A stretch of 53,724 nucleotides of DNA from an uncultured Gammaproteobacteria bacterium. Its GTDB lineage: Bacteria; Patescibacteriota; Patescibacteriia; UBA10025; JAHIVO01. The DNA is taken from contig CAZJUO010000002.1 in assembly GCA_964549245.1 (NCBI GenBank), forward strand, positions 1 through 53,724, written 5' to 3'. How positions within the stretch are numbered: position 1 is the stretch's first letter; each line of letters starts with the position of its first letter. The notes beneath the pieces were generated by a model. It worked only from the letters and a program-made list of their open reading frames with translations. It did not search any database and was not told the origin of the DNA. This document shows, one piece after another, positions 22,096-53,724 of this stretch. Made by a program: the position numbers and the translations under genes.

Positions 22096-22434
22096 TTAGT
22101 TTATTTTAGTTTTTTTGAGCAGACCAATAACCTCTTTTTCGCTAATAGCTTTCACTGATTTAAATTCCAAGCATTTAAACGTTTTGCCGCCGCCGGAGAG
22201 TTTGGCGTGCTCTGATTTTGGCAAATGCTTTAGTGAAAAACCAAGGTTAACGTGATCTTTCGGCCCGACAATATAAAAGTGACCACTGTAGTAGGGTACA
22301 CCTAACTTAAATTCCTCGACAATCTCCGGATACGTTTTCAAAATTAATTTCCGCAGCTTGTTGCAGATTTGTTTTTGGGGGGAGGGTTGCTTATTGATGT
22401 AGTCAGTGACGGTTTTATTCATAAGGTTAGCCAT
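22096..22434 (-). CDS. DUF1801 (YdhG-like) domain protein
   Basis: 112 aa with a VTDYINKQP...LRKLILKTYPEIVEEFKLGVPYY pattern. Confidence 0.6.
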   Translation of the reverse strand: MANLMNKTVTDYINKQPSPQKQICNKLRKLILKTYPEIVEEFKLGVPYYSGHFYIVGPKDHVNLGFSLKHLPKSEHAKLSGGGKTFKCLEFKSVKAISEKEVIGLLKKTKIN

Positions 22435-22621
22435 TAATTTCCTGTACCCTACCCACTTCGCCCGTAGTCAGGCGCACCTTGATACCATGCGGGTGCGTGG
22501 GCGAATTAGTCAGGATATCCTGGACAATACCGTAGGTTAGTCTGCCGGATCGCTGGTTATGTTTGAGGATAATAGCTACCTCCAAGCCTGGTTTAATGTC
22601 GTCTCGATTTGTTCCGTTCAT
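22427..22621 (-). CDS. YwbE family protein
   Basis: RSGRLTYGIVQDILTNSPTHPHGIKVRLTTGEVGRVQEI. Confidence 0.7.
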   Translation of the reverse strand: MNGTNRDDIKPGLEVAIILKHNQRSGRLTYGIVQDILTNSPTHPHGIKVRLTTGEVGRVQEING

Positions 22622-22799
22622 GCTATGGTTATTTAGTTACTAATATTTGTCGTGATATATCAATCACCGTCCGTTTCCAAAACCTCGCCTGTTTCGCCTT
22701 GCGAAGCACCTCCTGCCTCTGCAAGGCACGAGCGGGCTGGTGGTGGGCGGGCAATTTCCAAACAAATTCCAATAATTAATATTCAAAAGCTCAAATTGT

Positions 22800-22847
22800 G
22801 AGATTGCCGCGTTGTCCCGCTAGCACGCGGCTCCTCGCAATGACAAG
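22800..22847 (+). repeat. orphan copy of the GAGATTGC...GCAATGACAAG hairpin module
   Basis: GAGATTGC-cgcgttgtcccgctagcacgcggctcctc-GCAATGACAAG has the same termini as the modules flanking the GIY-YIG gene at 25.6 kb. Confidence 0.6.
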
Positions 22848-22980
22848 AGTAGCGTTTTTATTTTACGCTGATGTTGGCGGAAAATCAAATACCCAAGTTA
22901 TTCTCATTTGGATACATTAAAACCGCCAAACTTTACTACAGCAGGTCGGTGGCCTAGCTATATATGTGCGTGAAAATTAC

Positions 22981-23277
22981 TTAATGAGGAGAAATTATCT
23001 CCCCGGAAAGGAATATAATTACAAAAGCGCCGATGGCTATGGCCAGGAAAACCAAGATAGTCCGTTCTCGTTTCATGAGGACAGCCAAAATCCCGGTGAT
23101 AAAAGCGGCTATGCCGCAGAGGCCGGCCAGGGTAAAGGGGATGGCCAAAATCAGGTTGTCAAAATATTTTTCGCCGCCGCGCTGCCCGGAGAGAACTAGC
23201 CCGTAAAATACCAAGAGCAGGACAATAAATCCGATAATGAGCCCGACTGACCATTTTCCTAATTTTGTATGAGGCAT
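22981..23277 (-). CDS. small integral membrane protein
   Basis: 98 aa with 3 hydrophobic helices. Confidence 0.5.
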   Translation of the reverse strand: MPHTKLGKWSVGLIIGFIVLLLVFYGLVLSGQRGGEKYFDNLILAIPFTLAGLCGIAAFITGILAVLMKRERTILVFLAIAIGAFVIIFLSGEIISPH

Positions 23278-23326
23278 AGGGGTTGGTTAGCAACTAATTA
23301 ATTGATTAAAGTAGTAAAGGGGATTT

Positions 23327-23803
23327 CTAGGCTTGGCTTTTCAGCCATTCGATAACTGGTGCCACTTCTTCTTTAGCCAGGCCGCCCGTTTTGATAGTGC
23401 CTTTTTTGACGGCTGCTGCGAATATTTTTTTCAGCACCAGGTTTAGTTTGTCAAGATCGATAACGCCGGTCACTTTTTTATAACCGGCCAAGCCGTTTCG
23501 GATGTGCTCGGGTATCATTTCGTATTGGGTGCGGCTGTCTTTGTCTCCTTCCGGCGAGACACCGACTACCAGCAGGTACACCTTCTTATCTTTTAAGATA
23601 TCCCATTTGCTGGCAAGGAAGGAGTTGGCAGCGATTTTGCCCATAAAAACCCGTGAAGCAATAATTATCACGTCGTATGGCGACGGATTAGGATCGGCAC
23701 GATTGGCGTCAATGAGGTCAATATTAGGCAGGGCCTCGGCGATCCACTCAGCGTACTGTCTGGTGGCGCCCCATTTGGTGAAATATATAATGGCAGGTTT
23801 CAT
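23327..23803 (-). CDS. flavodoxin-like domain protein
   Basis: The sequence starts with MKPAIIYFTKWGATRQYAEWIAE. 158 aa. Confidence 0.6.
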   Translation of the reverse strand: MKPAIIYFTKWGATRQYAEWIAEALPNIDLIDANRADPNPSPYDVIIIASRVFMGKIAANSFLASKWDILKDKKVYLLVVGVSPEGDKDSRTQYEMIPEHIRNGLAGYKKVTGVIDLDKLNLVLKKIFAAAVKKGTIKTGGLAKEEVAPVIEWLKSQA

Positions 23804-23958
23804 GTGGTGTACTGGATGAGTAATTGTAACGCTTTTTATTTTACGCTTTTATTAGTTAATAATCAACTAAGTTGCCTTGACAAAAGGCTATGTATGGTAT
23901 ATAGTAGGTTGTTACATAAGGTAATTTGCTATTTAAAAAACAAATGGAGGTTATACCT

Positions 23959-24387
23959 ATGAAAAAAGGTAATCTGCTTTTTACTATTTTTGTTGTTGTC
24001 CTGCTGGCTGTTGGCACCACTGTGCCGGCGCATGCACAGGCGGGCTGGTTCGTGGCTGGCTGGCTGCTTGGATCCTCTTCAGGGGATAATATCCAGGGTG
24101 GTGCTTCTGGCGAGGTATTGTATGTTGTTGACAGTGTTGTTGCCAAGGTTATAAATCCGCTGGAGGTGCGGACTACCACGCTGAAAGTTGACTATGATTA
24201 CGGCCACGTTAAAAGAGGCATTTCTCTTGGGGAAATCTTTGAACAAGCCATGAATGAATTATTCTATGAATATGCCGAAAAGAAAGAGTATATCCCTTTG
24301 CGCATCAGCCGGGTAGTCAGTTTCAAGCCAGGGGAACAGTGCGTCTACTGGATCGAGTTTACCGCGCGAAGTAATTTTTCGAAATGA
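23959..24387 (+). CDS. secreted hypothetical protein
   Basis: SD GGAGG lies 9 nt before ATG 23959. Signal peptide is MKKGNLLFTIFVVVLLAVGTTVPAHA. Confidence 0.5.
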   Translation: MKKGNLLFTIFVVVLLAVGTTVPAHAQAGWFVAGWLLGSSSGDNIQGGASGEVLYVVDSVVAKVINPLEVRTTTLKVDYDYGHVKRGISLGEIFEQAMNELFYEYAEKKEYIPLRISRVVSFKPGEQCVYWIEFTARSNFSK

Positions 24388-24566
24388 TAAGCCCAGAAAG
24401 CATCGGGGTATCTATGGAACAAGTATTTGAAATCATCGCCTTATCCGGATTGATACTCGGGGTTATTGGCGGCCATCGGCTCAACACGTGGTGGGGCAAG
24501 CTTATTGGCTGGGGAGGCCTCCTCATGTGTTATGGCGGCTGTACCGTTTTGTACTTAGCCCGCTAA
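24384..24566 (+). CDS. small membrane protein
   Basis: 60 aa with an ATGA overlap with the preceding gene and two hydrophobic helices. Confidence 0.4.
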   Translation: MISPESIGVSMEQVFEIIALSGLILGVIGGHRLNTWWGKLIGWGGLLMCYGGCTVLYLAR

Positions 24567-24635
24567 AATAATTTACGCTAGCAATTTTGGTTGCTGGCGT
24601 TTTTTGTATTTCCATGGCGACCGGTGGGAGTTTTG

Positions 24636-25190
24636 TTATTTGAGTAAAGCGGTATAGGAGAGTCTAATCTTGGGTTGTGCAATGATAGTAAAGCCAGTTC
24701 GCTCCGCTGTTTTCAGTGACTGGTTGAATTCTTTTTCTGAAACATGGTGCTTGGGTTCGGCAATAAAGACCCGTGCGTTGGGCTTGAGGATGTTTTTAAT
24801 CTGTTGCAGGAAACTGGCCTGGTCAGGCAGTTCATGAAGCACATGGAACAACAATACAAAATCAACAGGCGTAGAAACGCCGAGACTGCCTGGCGGAGTG
24901 AGGCGCAGTTCAATACGCTCTGCCAGAGGGGTGCTTTGTATTTTTTCTTGTACCTTATCCAGCATTCCTTGCTGCATGTCAGTAGCGATGACTTTGCCGT
25001 TTGGGCCAATCATGGTTGCCAAGGGGACAGTAAAAAATCCCGGTCCGCAGCCAAGGTCAAGGACGGTCATGCCGAGAGTAATGTAGGGGGCTAAAATTTT
25101 TTTTGGGTTGTTGATCAGTTTGCGCAGCCAGCTATCCAGGGAACCGGCTTTTTCCATGGGGCAGACTGAATGTCGGGGGGTGTTTTCCAT
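24636..25190 (-). CDS. class I SAM-dependent methyltransferase
   Basis: VLDLGCGPGFFT motif I. 184 aa. Confidence 0.75.
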   Translation of the reverse strand: MENTPRHSVCPMEKAGSLDSWLRKLINNPKKILAPYITLGMTVLDLGCGPGFFTVPLATMIGPNGKVIATDMQQGMLDKVQEKIQSTPLAERIELRLTPPGSLGVSTPVDFVLLFHVLHELPDQASFLQQIKNILKPNARVFIAEPKHHVSEKEFNQSLKTAERTGFTIIAQPKIRLSYTALLK

Positions 25191-25200
25191 TAAAAATAAT

Positions 25201-25482
25201 TTATTTTAATTGTTTATTGTCTGGCGAAGAATCTGAATTTTTGTTCTTTTTGCGCAGGAAAAAATACCAGGAGGCAATGGCCAGGACCACTAAGGTGATT
25301 ATTGTTATCGCTCCGCCGATAAAGTCTCCCCGCGCAAAGTAACGGACTATTTGTATTAGTTCTGCGATGAGCACCAGCGGTATTATTATCAGAAAAAAGA
25401 TTTTTAGTATTTTTTCCACAGCAAGGCTATATAATTGTTTATAAAACTGTACTGTTTTTGAGATTACTCCCCCCGGACTCAC
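25201..25482 (-). CDS. small membrane protein
   Basis: 93 aa with two hydrophobic helices. Confidence 0.45.
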   Translation of the reverse strand: MSPGGVISKTVQFYKQLYSLAVEKILKIFFLIIIPLVLIAELIQIVRYFARGDFIGGAITIITLVVLAIASWYFFLRKKNKNSDSSPDNKQLK

Positions 25483-25567
25483 TATGGCGAGGCAGGCGGA
25501 CTAGTAGTCGTCTTTTTTCATTTTATTACTATATTCGGGTTGATACTTACAATGGGAAACAATTTTT

Positions 25568-25952
25568 CTTGTCATTGCGAGGAATGAAATGACGAAGCAA
25601 TCTCACCCCTCCTTATTATACCAACCTTCACTCAAGTCTTCCCATTCCGGATTAATTCTTTCAATCAGATTGATTTTCTTCTGCCGCGAGCCTCCCTTGA
25701 TTTGCTTTTCTCTGGCAATGGCATCATTAATGTACTGGAATTCCTCGTAGTAAACCAATTTGTTGATATTGTATCTCTTGGTAAATCCATCCACTTCTCT
25801 ACGCTTATGCTGAAGGACACGGCCCATCAGTTCGCCAGTGACACCAGTATAGAGCGTAGTGTTTACTTTATTTGTCATGATGTAAACGTAGTAGTGGCGC
25901 TCTTTTCGCATAGTGGCTTTTTGAGATTGCTTCGCTTCGCTCGCAATGACAG
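25568..25952 (-). mobile_element. candidate miniature element: GIY-YIG ORF bounded by inverted hairpin modules
   Basis: Left module 25568-25604 is CTTGTCATTGCGAG...GAAGCAATCTC. Right module 25923-25952 is GAGATTGCTTC...CTCGCAATGACAG. The outer and inner arms are reverse complements of each other. Confidence 0.45.
25603..25911 (-). CDS. GIY-YIG nuclease family protein (small, catalytic domain only)
   Basis: YYVYIMTNKVNTTLYTGVT...RVLQHK...E. 102 aa. Confidence 0.85.
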   Translation of the reverse strand: MRKERHYYVYIMTNKVNTTLYTGVTGELMGRVLQHKRREVDGFTKRYNINKLVYYEEFQYINDAIAREKQIKGGSRQKKINLIERINPEWEDLSEGWYNKEG

Positions 25953-26086
25953 TGGTGTGCGAATTGGAGTTGTCACAATAACAAGAGAAAGTGGGCTTTA
26001 AACACTATTTAGGAAGCTCCGTTAAAACAGAACTCTTTTTTCATGACAAAAAGGTGAAGCTTATCATAGCGAGGAAAAAACTGAAA

Positions 26087-27157
26087 TTAATCTTTTTGCA
26101 CTTTATACAGCATCAGATAGCTCCCGTCATTGAGTTTAACTACCGATGGGTCGGCCGTTACATGTGAATTTGGGTCATAAAAATCGTAGCCTGACGATTC
26201 AAAAATATTTGCGTCAACTCCCGTGGCAATGTTAATGCCGGCAGTATACAAATACCAGGTATCGCCTTCCACAAATACGTCGGGTACCGCGCCGCCTTGA
26301 TATACGGGGCCTATATATTCAAATGCCAGTCCGTCGGACGCAGTAGCCAGGTTAACCATATTGCCCGCCAAATCACCGACAAACATGTACCACGTACCGT
26401 CAGCATACTCCACGTCCGGATCAAAAGCGCCGTTATGCTCAAAACGCATGCCTTGTTCCTGCGTAAAATTAATTCCATCATCAGAGATAGCAGAATAAAT
26501 TTTTTGCGGGGGTTCAATGCCGCTAGCCGGTTTATTAAGGCGCGGTTCATTGATATCAAAATAGTATAAGCGTATTCGGCCATCGGCCAGGAGTACCGGA
26601 GCAGGATCGGCGGTGGCTTTATCTCCCAGTCCGTCAATGGTTAGAATTTCTGGTTCTGACCAGGTTTGGCCTTGGTCTTCAGACTTTACCATGCCCAGCT
26701 GTTCTTTTAGGCCGTTAGTGGAAACATCTACGAAATAGACGAAAATCGTACCGTTTTTTACCACTGCACCCGGCACCGAAGCGTGTTCAGCCAGGATAAC
26801 GTTCGATGGCGTCCAGTTTAGTAAATCAGTACTGGTAGCATACGTTACTTTATCGCGGTAGGGTCCTTCATTCATGGCAGACCAGTTAAACATATTAGAA
26901 TCTTGTTGGACGGTTTTTTGGTTGGTGTTGCTGTTACTTGTAGTGATTTGCTCGGTAGTGCAATTGTAAGGGATGCCATAACAGGTTACGTCGACCGGTC
27001 CGATGGCGAGCATACTGTGTTCAAAGCCCAAGCAATCGCACGATTTTATTTCGCACCCAGCGCAGGTACCGCCCGAACCGCTTTTTCGGGGGAAGAAAAA
27101 AATTCCTGCCCCAATGATGATTATAACTACCAGAATAATAATTGTTTTTTTATTCAT
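26087..27157 (-). CDS. secreted beta-propeller protein with BNR/Asp-box (sialidase- or glycoside-hydrolase-like)
   Basis: N-terminal TM or signal and a Cys-rich linker. One clear Asp-box is present (SEDQGQTWS). Confidence 0.5.
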   Translation of the reverse strand: MNKKTIIILVVIIIIGAGIFFFPRKSGSGGTCAGCEIKSCDCLGFEHSMLAIGPVDVTCYGIPYNCTTEQITTSNSNTNQKTVQQDSNMFNWSAMNEGPYRDKVTYATSTDLLNWTPSNVILAEHASVPGAVVKNGTIFVYFVDVSTNGLKEQLGMVKSEDQGQTWSEPEILTIDGLGDKATADPAPVLLADGRIRLYYFDINEPRLNKPASGIEPPQKIYSAISDDGINFTQEQGMRFEHNGAFDPDVEYADGTWYMFVGDLAGNMVNLATASDGLAFEYIGPVYQGGAVPDVFVEGDTWYLYTAGINIATGVDANIFESSGYDFYDPNSHVTADPSVVKLNDGSYLMLYKVQKD

Positions 27158-48576: not shown

Positions 48577-48591
48577 CCCAGAGCGGAGGAG
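48577..48591. repeat. left arm of perfect 15-bp inverted repeat (CCCAGAGCGGAGGAG)
   Basis: Exact reverse complement of 49148-49162. Confidence 0.9.
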
Positions 48592-48603
48592 GTGAGATTC
48601 GCC
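48584..48603 (-). pseudogene. tRNA 3'-end-like fragment (T-loop remnant plus acceptor 3' strand plus discriminator)
   Basis: Minus strand GGCGAATCTCACCTCCTCCG matches the tRNA-Ser(CGA) 3' end TTCGAATCCCACCCCTTCCG at 15/20 positions. Its acceptor strand is complementary to the 5' fragment at 49148-49154. Confidence 0.55.
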
Positions 48604-48655
48604 CAGTCATCCGACTGGGCGCCATGCCGGATGGCATGGCAAACCCCAAGCAGAA

Positions 48656-48669
48656 GGGGCGAGAGCGGC
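48656..48669. repeat. 14-nt direct repeat GGGGCGAGAGCGGC (copy 1)
   Basis: Identical to 49115-49128. Confidence 0.85.
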
Positions 48670-48681
48670 TAATTAATTCAA

Positions 48682-48768
48682 CGGAAGGGGTGGGATTCGA
48701 ACCCACGGTACCCTTGCAGGTACATCGCTTTTCGAGAGCGACCCGATCGACCACTCCGGCACCCTTCC
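48682..48768 (-). tRNA. tRNA-Ser (anticodon CGA), type II with long variable arm
   Basis: Manual cloverleaf is GGAAGGG-TG-CCGG-AGTGGTCGA-TCGG-G-TCGCT-CTCGAAA-AGCGA-TGTACCTGCAAGGGTACC-GTGGG-TTCGAAT-CCCAC-CCCTTCC-G. CCA is not encoded. Confidence 0.9.
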
Positions 48769-48770
48769 AT

Positions 48771-49082
48771 CTATTCCTCATATTTAATTTGCTTGTACTT
48801 TCCTATTGATTTTAAAAAACTTGATAATTGTCTATTTAGGAATTTTTTACAATCACTTGTCTTTAGGAATTTCTCTCGCCGCCTGGCATCTTCCTCGAGA
48901 ATATATGCTTCATAGTGAATCAGTCGTAACGGCCGTAAGTGTTTAGTTGATTTTACCTCACCATCATGGTGTTGTTTAACCCTTTGTTTGAGTGCTGTCG
49001 TAAAGCCAGTATATAGTGTATTGTTTTTTAGGAGTAGTAGATATACAAAGTACATATTGTTATGTGAATGCGTTTTCGCCAC
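48771..49082 (-). CDS. GIY-YIG nuclease family protein (small, catalytic domain only)
   Basis: MYFVYLLLLKNNTLYTGFTTALKQRVKQH...E. The true start may be ATG 49055. The stop TAG at 48773-48771 lies 2 nt before the tRNA. Confidence 0.8.
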   Translation of the reverse strand: MAKTHSHNNMYFVYLLLLKNNTLYTGFTTALKQRVKQHHDGEVKSTKHLRPLRLIHYEAYILEEDARRREKFLKTSDCKKFLNRQLSSFLKSIGKYKQIKYEE

Positions 49083-49114
49083 GGGATGAACCCGTGGCGC
49101 CCCGAGTTAATCTC

Positions 49115-49128
49115 GGGGCGAGAGCGGC
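49115..49128. repeat. 14-nt direct repeat GGGGCGAGAGCGGC (copy 2)
   Basis: Identical to 48656-48669. Confidence 0.85.
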
Positions 49129-49154
49129 CCGTTCAACCACTCCGGCACTCCTCC
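49119..49154 (-). pseudogene. tRNA-Ser-like 5' half (acceptor 5' strand, D arm, 5' side of anticodon arm)
   Basis: Minus strand GGAGGAGTGCCGGAGTGGTTGAACGGGCCGCTCTCG is identical at 31/36 positions to positions 1-36 of tRNA-Ser(CGA). No matching anticodon 3' strand follows. Confidence 0.6.
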
Positions 49155-49162
49155 GCTCTGGG
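49148..49162. repeat. right arm of perfect 15-bp inverted repeat (CTCCTCCGCTCTGGG)
   Basis: Exact reverse complement of 48577-48591. Confidence 0.9.
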
Positions 49163-53130: not shown

Positions 53131-53142
53131 TTTTGTTATAAA

Positions 53143-53258
53143 CTGGCGATGGCCTACTTTCCCCGCGGTGTGCCCCGCAGTATCATCGGCGCAGGCAGGC
53201 TTAACTGCTGAGTTCGGAATGGGATCAGGTGTGACCCTGCCGCTTGAAGCACCAGAGG
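53143..53258 (-). rRNA. rrf: 5S ribosomal RNA
   Basis: The minus strand reads CCTCTGGTGC...CCCATTCCGAACTCAGCAGTTAAGC...GTAGGCCATCGCCAG. These are classic 5S loop C/helix III and terminal helix sequences. Confidence 0.9.
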
Positions 53259-53451
53259 TTAAAAAATAAATGATTATTTCTTATACCTCCAGTCTCAAGC
53301 TTAATACGGTTTGATCGGCGTAAGATACAGAATGATGCTGACAAAAGCGATAACCAGAATAAACACAAAAATAAGTTGTATGTTTATTTTTTTATTCATA
53401 TTTTGTTTAATAATTTGGGAAAACACGTAGCAAGCAATTGCAGTCTTTTAG

Positions 53452-53724
<273 letters not shown>

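Follow-up and report, generated by a model that had tools for sequence, protein, structure and literature searches.

A GIY-YIG nuclease gene of the Ssn family between inverted hairpin modules in a probable Patescibacteria genome

We analyzed a 53,724-nt stretch of DNA from a probable Patescibacteria genome (hereafter, the window) containing a small GIY-YIG nuclease gene that lies between two inverted copies of a hairpin module. As judged from sequence comparison, the locus belongs to the known pairing of Ssn nucleases with SRM repeats, and its modules represent a class that was overlooked by the published search string. In our preferred reading, to which we assign a probability of roughly 80%, an Ssn-family gene is accompanied by its cognate SRM-type repeats, the protein would cut the module in single-stranded DNA (ssDNA), the two partners would co-evolve as a pair, and the unit would have been moved over evolutionary time. 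The evidence comprises the anatomy of the locus, family membership by homology, the association between gene and module, the covariation of the module stem, the co-variation of protein and module, and the boundaries of the unit. By analogy with its homologs, the window protein most likely cleaves ssDNA, and its biological role might be, for example, to limit module-bearing incoming or replicative ssDNA or to propagate itself.

These results add a probable Patescibacteria genome to the hosts of the Ssn nuclease/hairpin-repeat pairing and define a very widespread module class, GTC-X5-GAG...CGAA-rc(X5)-CTC. They also provide handles on the question of mobility, namely the unit boundaries, the polarity bias of the gene-less module pairs, the co-variation of protein and stem, and one strain-level case of presence and absence. 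In addition, every cognate pair of protein and module is a candidate reagent for cutting ssDNA in a sequence-specific manner.

Anatomy of the locus

The features of the locus are listed in Table 1. The modules are approximately 30-37 nt long and read GTCATTGCGAG...GAAGCAATCTC, with the ORF enclosed between two inverted copies; on the gene strand, the order is M2 (sense), 11 nt, ATG...TGA, and M1 (antisense). M2 reads (C)TGTCATTGCGAG-CGAAGC-GAAGCAATCTC on the gene strand, and M1, inverted with respect to it, reads CTTGTCATTGCGAG-GAATGAAATGAC-GAAGCAATCTC. The pattern GTCATTGCGAG...GCAATCTC is found at 25571-25604 on the plus strand for M1 and at 25923-25950 on the minus strand for M2. The outer arms (25570-25581/25940-25951, 12 nt) and the inner arms (25593-25605/25922-25934, 13 nt) are both 100% complementary. 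The TGA stop codon shares the GA of GAGATTGC with the downstream module. At a locus from the same mat study that holds a 90% identical homolog (L001), the counterpart of the spacer between M2 and the ATG is AAAAATGCCTCT. A sequence-only reading of this DNA had described an ORF with two inverted modules at these positions, reverse-complement arms, an ATG 11 nt from one module, a stop codon overlapping the other, and no transposase nearby, and all of this was borne out, the last point by the absence of transposase domains from the ten ORFs neighboring the cassette.

A covariance model trained on 86 modules taken from other loci gave only three significant matches in the 53.7-kb window, corresponding to M2, M1, and M3, with the next match at E=0.57. 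Because the model finds exactly these three elements, the module observation is not a product of chance. The solo module M3 contains an inner GC hairpin (GCCGCG...CGCGGC), and a relaxed tblastn search found no GIY-YIG remnant beside it. Two candidate decayed modules that had been picked out by eye (26060-26097 and 25460-25492) were unsupported by the covariance model. The cassette occurs once in the window, and its gene is intergenic, with unrelated genes as neighbors, and does not lie in an intron. Scanning for promoters and terminators returned nothing at the cassette and no T-run or terminator-like site at the modules, and neither the cassette of the window nor any of the gene-less pairs listed has a visible direct repeat at its flanks.

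Two minor features of the region were also recorded. At 25712-25723, the sequence coding for the conserved catalytic motif AIAREKQIK (GCCATTGCCAGAGAAAAGCAAATC) is similar to the module (GTCATTGCGAG..GAAGCAATC); 10 of 12 positions match in the outer arm, possibly by chance. Ahead of M3, at 22680-22800, a GC-rich stretch is followed by the A/T-rich 'ttccaaacaaattccaataattaatattcaaaagctcaaa' within an intergenic region of 546 nt.

Table 1. Features of the GIY-YIG locus and of the solo module in the window.
Feature	Coordinates	Strand	Supporting match or sequence
Whole unit, module - GIY-YIG gene - module, 385 bp	25568..25952	.	
GIY-YIG nuclease gene, Ssn family, single-domain, 102 aa	25603..25911	-	PF01541, E=1e-13
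Upstream module M2	25923..25952	-	covariance model match 25921-25954(-), 46.1 bits, E=2.7e-9
Spacer from M2 to the ATG, 11 nt	25912..25922	-	AAAAAGCCACT
Downstream module M1	25568..25604	+	covariance model match 25567-25606(+), 41.6 bits, E=3.5e-8
Solo module M3, intergenic	22798..22848	-	covariance model match, E=1.2e-5

Consensus and covariation of the module stem

The 589 module copies yielded the consensus Y-GTC-X5-GAG-[variable, often GC hairpin]-CGAA-rc(X5)-C-(T/C)-C, with size peaks at 26 and 32 nt. The inner sequence of M2, GAGCGAAGCGAA, is the commonest variant (24 of 589 copies). The heptamer GCGAAGC, a DNA mini-hairpin whose unusual stability was reportedly described by Hirao et al., is present in 171 of the 589 modules.

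We assessed the basal stem by seeking every type of 3' box after every type of 5' box. The 5' box predicted the complementary 3' box, with complement counts of 394/453 for ATTGC, 50/60 for ATTCT, 35/47 for ATCCT, 19/28 for ATCGC, and 13/15 for ATTCC, and the off-diagonal counts were almost nil. This compensatory covariation across copies indicates that the module stem is real. The 5-bp stems in the window are themselves weak, with nearest-neighbor folding energies of -4.7 and -2.7 kcal/mol and z-scores of -0.97 and +0.32 for the two flanking modules, so that the stem is backed by covariation rather than by stability. The earlier proposal that each module folds on itself through ATTGC/GCAAT was upheld by the covariation in hundreds of copies, whereas in the window the fold is energetically unremarkable. 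Searches against Rfam 15 gave no match at gathering scores and none at E<=1 over 22400-26200.

The GIY-YIG protein and its assignment to the Ssn family

The PF01541 domain spans residues 7-81 of the 102-aa protein and is the sole domain in the ORF. The AlphaFold model (pLDDT 92.8) shows one compact GIY-YIG domain, for which UPF0213 BH0048, Slx1, and the N-terminal domain of UvrC are the closest solved folds. Residues Y10, Y21, G23, R31, H35, and E68 are invariant among 32 homologs, and N87 is nearly so. Homologs number in the thousands, with the best ones in Patescibacteria, followed by Mucilaginibacter, cyanobacteria, and others; a profile search returned 23,743 clusters (at 50% identity) at E<=1e-3 and 9,488 at E<=1e-10, all of them small proteins. 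The protein had no match in NCBIfam, PADLOC, or PHROGs, and a sequence search of the PDB returned weak UPF0213 entries only and no Ssn structure.

Some peculiarities of annotation were seen in this family. Gene callers frequently read across the modules, some C-termini end in ...IASLRSQ, and N-terminal extensions of 30-70 aa before the domain are common, so that the annotated protein lengths are unreliable. These peculiarities were noted in P0068, in P0102, and in many representatives of 120-170 aa.

The Ssn proteins are single-domain GIY-YIG proteins of approximately 94 aa, assigned to cd10448 (GIY-YIG_unchar_3), that bind and cut ssDNA without acting on double-stranded DNA (dsDNA) or RNA (Chenal et al., 2025, Nat Commun, PMC11893778). 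Their cut is strand-specific and falls directly upstream of a hairpin repeat, and in vitro cleavage was reported for four homologs from Neisseria and Wolbachia (PMC11893778). The Neisseria repeat, termed NTS (CGTCATTCCCGCGMAVGCGGGAATCYRG; SRM is the general name), is present on the flanks of the gene and in hundreds of copies, and the role described in Neisseria is to limit module-bearing incoming ssDNA; the authors liken the NTS-ssnA-NTS arrangement to an insertion sequence and compare it with REP/RAYT (PMC11893778).

The published criterion of homology is a tblastn match at E<1e-10 to Neisseria SsnA (PMC11893778). A tblastn search of the N. gonorrhoeae chromosome with the window protein gave a single match (E=1e-16, 45.9% identity, 85 aa), and pairwise BLASTP with this Neisseria homolog gave 46% identity (E=3e-26), the comparator in both cases being an N. 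gonorrhoeae gene identified as ssnA from its NTS flanks, rather than the purified N. meningitidis protein. The homolog (locus L203) is flanked by canonical NTS copies, and the 46% identity to it places the window locus in the Ssn family. This gene occupies positions 1490-1773 of L203, from NZ_CP119142.1, a 2.17-Mb N. gonorrhoeae chromosome filed as a plasmid. Ahead of the aligned region, the nearby ATG is in a different frame and an in-frame one is missing, so that the gene may be frameshifted in this strain.

The two systems share single-domain GIY-YIG proteins of about 94-102 aa, oriented hairpin repeats that flank the gene and recur elsewhere, mostly between genes, the repeat frame YGTCAT...stem...ATC, and inverted repeat pairs, which are also present at the Neisseria locus L203. 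They differ in the host, which here is a probable Patescibacteria genome, and in the build of the repeat, the present module combining a basal stem of just 5 bp with a conserved GAG/CGAA internal loop and a distal hairpin that varies, whereas the stem of the NTS runs on continuously for 9 bp. The published SRM string, HGTCWYN(0-2)YYVSBRHN(0-5)WNVSBRGN(0-2)RNCYNB, matched nothing in the window and none of the 589 modules; in the Neisseria control it found 8 NTS copies. This string is a search tool and not a definition of the family. Given the shared frame, the different build, and the 0/589 result, we file the locus under the Ssn/SRM pairing with a separate module class. The sequence-only reading had treated it as a miniature mobile cassette and had not recognized the published pairing.

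Distribution of the modules and their association with the gene

We searched species-representative genomes and viral contigs for the exact pattern GTCATTGCGAG-N(4-34)-GCAATCTC. Exact 19-nt matches were found in at least 120 stretches of the species-representative genomes, representing more than 15 bacterial phyla, and in at least 120 stretches of viral contigs. Among the matches listed, a GIY-YIG ORF was present at 4 of the 120 genome loci and at none of the 120 viral loci. A generalized detector found 280 modules in the 120 genome loci listed, including 64 (+,-) pairs with spacers of 8-76 nt, 12 (-,+) pairs, and 117 solo copies.

The association is far tighter when it is viewed from the protein. 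A module lies within 150 nt of the gene in 62 of 68 related loci (91%) and on both sides of it in 43 of them, and the (+,-) arrangement of the window is the commonest (22 of 68), with other arrangements at the remaining 46. In 21 of 37 cases among the relatives, the downstream module begins 0-2 nt past the stop codon. The related loci contained 276 modules, compared to 7 in shuffled sequence. Since the modules are mostly gene-free, yet the related genes lie near modules, the modules are a dispersed repeat family to which the gene is tightly tied. A count of solo modules versus ORF-containing pairs, as proposed earlier, gave mostly solo copies or gene-less inverted pairs.

The protein and the module also vary together. 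Mean protein identity was 64.3% within the same stem class and 58.7% between different classes, and none of 2000 permutations was as extreme. The nearest-neighbor protein shared the stem class in 63 of 66 cases.

Beside many related genes, the outer arm together with approximately 9-10 nt is repeated in tandem 2 to 5 times, as at L205 (2201-2260, 2842-2900, and 2975-3040) and L213 (2775-2850 and 3300-3410); in one example, CTGTCATTCTGAGT+tctcctgtg occurs three times. This 'arm stutter' may have been left behind by nicking and repair that took place repeatedly. Separately, loci L176 and L180, obtained from different samples, are 99.7-100% identical and yet differ by ~368 nt in the copy number of a module array directly downstream of the GIY-YIG gene, possibly as an assembly artifact.

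Unit ends, genomic contexts, and presence or absence

Homology between the window and L001 runs from TGTCAT to ATGACAAGA, the outer ends of the modules, and is confined to 25568..25952. In L001, the gene lies between dnaK- and dnaJ-region genes. For 27 cassettes offered for alignment with 300-nt flanks, many pairs aligned from -5..-1 to 0..+2 around the outer GTC/GAC. The immediate neighbors differ in all four close homologs, and in one comparison (L206 versus the window) the gene lies on opposite sides of a common PHO4-PhoU-GH43 block. L001 additionally carries two gene-less pairs of ~190 nt, 8 kb apart and ~90% alike up to the outer arms, one of which contains a 47-nt module identical to that of the GIY-YIG cassette.

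A strain-level difference was observed among the plasmids of Planktothrix. In Planktothrix agardhii No.66, a 430-nt gene-bearing segment is located exactly at the module outer arm, with the outer arm present at both of its ends; at this place, an intact gene-less pair is found on the plasmids of PCC7805 and NIES-204. The extra segment of No.66 is at the outer arm and not between the two modules. In contrast, each of three proteins that recur with identical sequence occupies one context throughout its contigs (P0006, 10; P0042, 23; and P0068, 24), and comparison of near-identical strains revealed no filled/empty pair.

Searches for an empty site of the window locus yielded none, and the reads of three runs of the source study contained no excision joint there. 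At the modules, the mapped reads showed breaks in the assembly and a very high depth. Three read 'skips' considered as excision events proved to be other gene-less pairs with unrelated spacers and flanks. In the collections searched, the window genome had no close relative; the GIY-YIG and GH43-like proteins of the window had no record elsewhere, the only other copy of the methyltransferase was on a 1.5-kb contig from the same sample, and the closest GH43-like homologs (74-76%) were not syntenic with the window.

The evidence for mobility is mixed, and past mobility is plausible. The earlier view of the locus as a mobile cassette agrees with a discrete unit that ends at the outer GTC/GAC, with the differing neighbors, and with the common gene-less pairs of the same polarity, but not with the occurrence of the exact configuration at only 22 of 68 loci, the single context of each identical protein, and the failure to find an empty site.

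Defense-related neighbors were noted at some of the related loci. The gene of L213 (P0068) lies between mod and res of a Type III restriction system at all 10 places shown of the 24 contigs, and that of L205, on the Planktothrix plasmid, lies between an MmeI-type enzyme and the DISARM gene drmA. In PCC7805, a PIN/antitoxin pair is nearby instead.

Proposed mechanism and alternative explanations

In the preferred reading, the 102-aa protein would bind the module once the DNA becomes single-stranded. The single-stranded module is predicted to fold into a basal stem of 5 bp, X5/rc(X5), between 5'-YGTC and C(T/C)C-3', and above this stem lie the conserved GAG...CGAA internal loop and a distal hairpin that varies. 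By analogy with the Neisseria and Wolbachia homologs, the protein would cut the module strand just 5' of the hairpin, and M1, M2, and M3 would be its target sites. With the flanking modules inverted, a nick would be expected immediately beyond each end of the unit, the two being on opposite strands. These positions match the points where homology between cassettes stops, and the two may be linked. Protein and module would co-evolve as a pair. Over evolutionary time, the unit was probably moved between genomes and sites by module cleavage followed by host recombination or repair, rather than by a self-contained transposition reaction, and in present populations it would behave as a stable resident gene.

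The mobility part of this explanation could be refined by homing-like spread, which we regard as possible, albeit on balance rather unlikely. The gene-less (+,-) pairs would then be empty alleles whose single-stranded modules are nicked by the nuclease, with a filled copy serving as the template for recombinational repair, through which the pair would acquire the gene. This proposal accounts for the location of the gene, most often inside a (+,-) pair, the polarity that also prevails among the abundant gene-less pairs (22 of 68 loci, and 64 versus 12 among the matches listed), for the end of homology at the outer ends of the modules, for the identical 47-nt module in a cassette and a gene-less pair of one genome, and for the Planktothrix gene at a place where two related plasmids hold an intact gene-less pair. 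It is weakened by the mere ~30-45 nt of homology that the modules offer per side, by the position of the extra Planktothrix segment at the outer arm rather than between the modules, by the other configurations at 46 of 68 loci, and by the absence of filled/empty pairs among the near-identical strains.

A related proposal is that the unit is a still-active selfish element with a new mechanism, in which an ssDNA-specific GIY-YIG nuclease drives its own spread and that of the gene-less pairs through cleavage of hairpins in ssDNA and the use of host repair. We consider this unlikely; if true, it would explain the occurrence of a 19-nt-identical module in more than 15 phyla and in viral contigs.

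It is improbable that the unit is an autonomous miniature transposon, with the modules as terminal inverted repeats, the GIY-YIG protein alone moving the 385-bp unit, and the gene-less pairs as MITEs. GIY-YIG enzymes are hydrolytic nucleases for which covalent intermediates, strand joining, and strand transfer are not known, which argues against the sequence-only suggestion that the nuclease is the only mobility function. The architecture does resemble that of an insertion sequence, as also remarked by Chenal et al. (PMC11893778), the unit has discrete ends, the gene-less pairs are dispersed, multi-copy, and end at the outer arms, and there is no other transposase nearby. Nevertheless, target-site duplications are not visible at the pair ends, the window contains a single copy of the cassette, each identical protein keeps one context across 10-24 assemblies, and the reads lack an excision joint at the window locus.

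An RNA-level role, in which the modules would be generic intergenic repeats that serve as terminators, mRNA stabilizers, or insulators and the gene would merely be located among them, fits the majority of modules that are not beside a gene, the depletion of modules from long ORFs (0.37 inside versus 0.86 base coverage), and the downstream module that abuts the stop codon, but is highly improbable in light of the presence of a module near 91% of the related genes, the agreement of protein relatedness with stem class, the absence of T-runs and terminator-like sites at the modules, the lack of Rfam matches even at E<=1, and the reportedly stable DNA mini-hairpin in many modules. Furthermore, the homologs bind repeats of this kind in ssDNA but not in RNA (PMC11893778).

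Comparison with other repeat-associated systems

The REP/RAYT (TnpA-REP) and IS200/IS605 systems also have one small gene between inverted hairpin repeats, many solo or clustered repeat copies that are recognized as single-stranded hairpins, and no target duplications, none being visible at the present pair ends; their enzymes belong to the HUH Y1 transposases, which form a covalent intermediate through tyrosine, whereas the present ORF encodes a GIY-YIG domain only. The dRS3-bounded intergenic mosaic elements of Neisseria and MITEs resemble the gene-less pairs as short intergenic units with inverted ends made of the same repeat, and array copy number appears to vary between near-identical contigs for the present modules. 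In contrast, classical MITEs are IS-derived, with a DDE transposase and target duplications, neither of which was seen here. GIY-YIG homing endonucleases of the I-TevI type share the catalytic fold and the occurrence of the gene as a discrete insert in varying contexts. They differ in having extra DNA-binding domains, in cutting dsDNA, and in residing usually in introns, whereas the present protein is a bare ~100-aa domain that is not intron-borne.

Second GIY-YIG ORF and other features of the window

Besides the cassette gene, the window contains another GIY-YIG ORF, a divergent one with 41% identity to it, at approximately 48774-49054 on the minus strand, directly upstream of a tRNA-Ser(CGA) gene (48681-48769). 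The ORF and the tRNA gene are together enclosed by a perfect 15-nt inverted repeat (48577-48591/49148-49162) and by a 14-nt direct repeat (48656-48669/49115-49128). ARAGORN and Rfam detected no second tRNA or intron at 48577-49162, and a 36-nt copy of the 5' half of the tRNA-Ser, 86% identical to it, lies at 49119-49154. The end of the window (53141-53724) is occupied by a 5S rRNA gene and the 3' end of a 23S rRNA gene.
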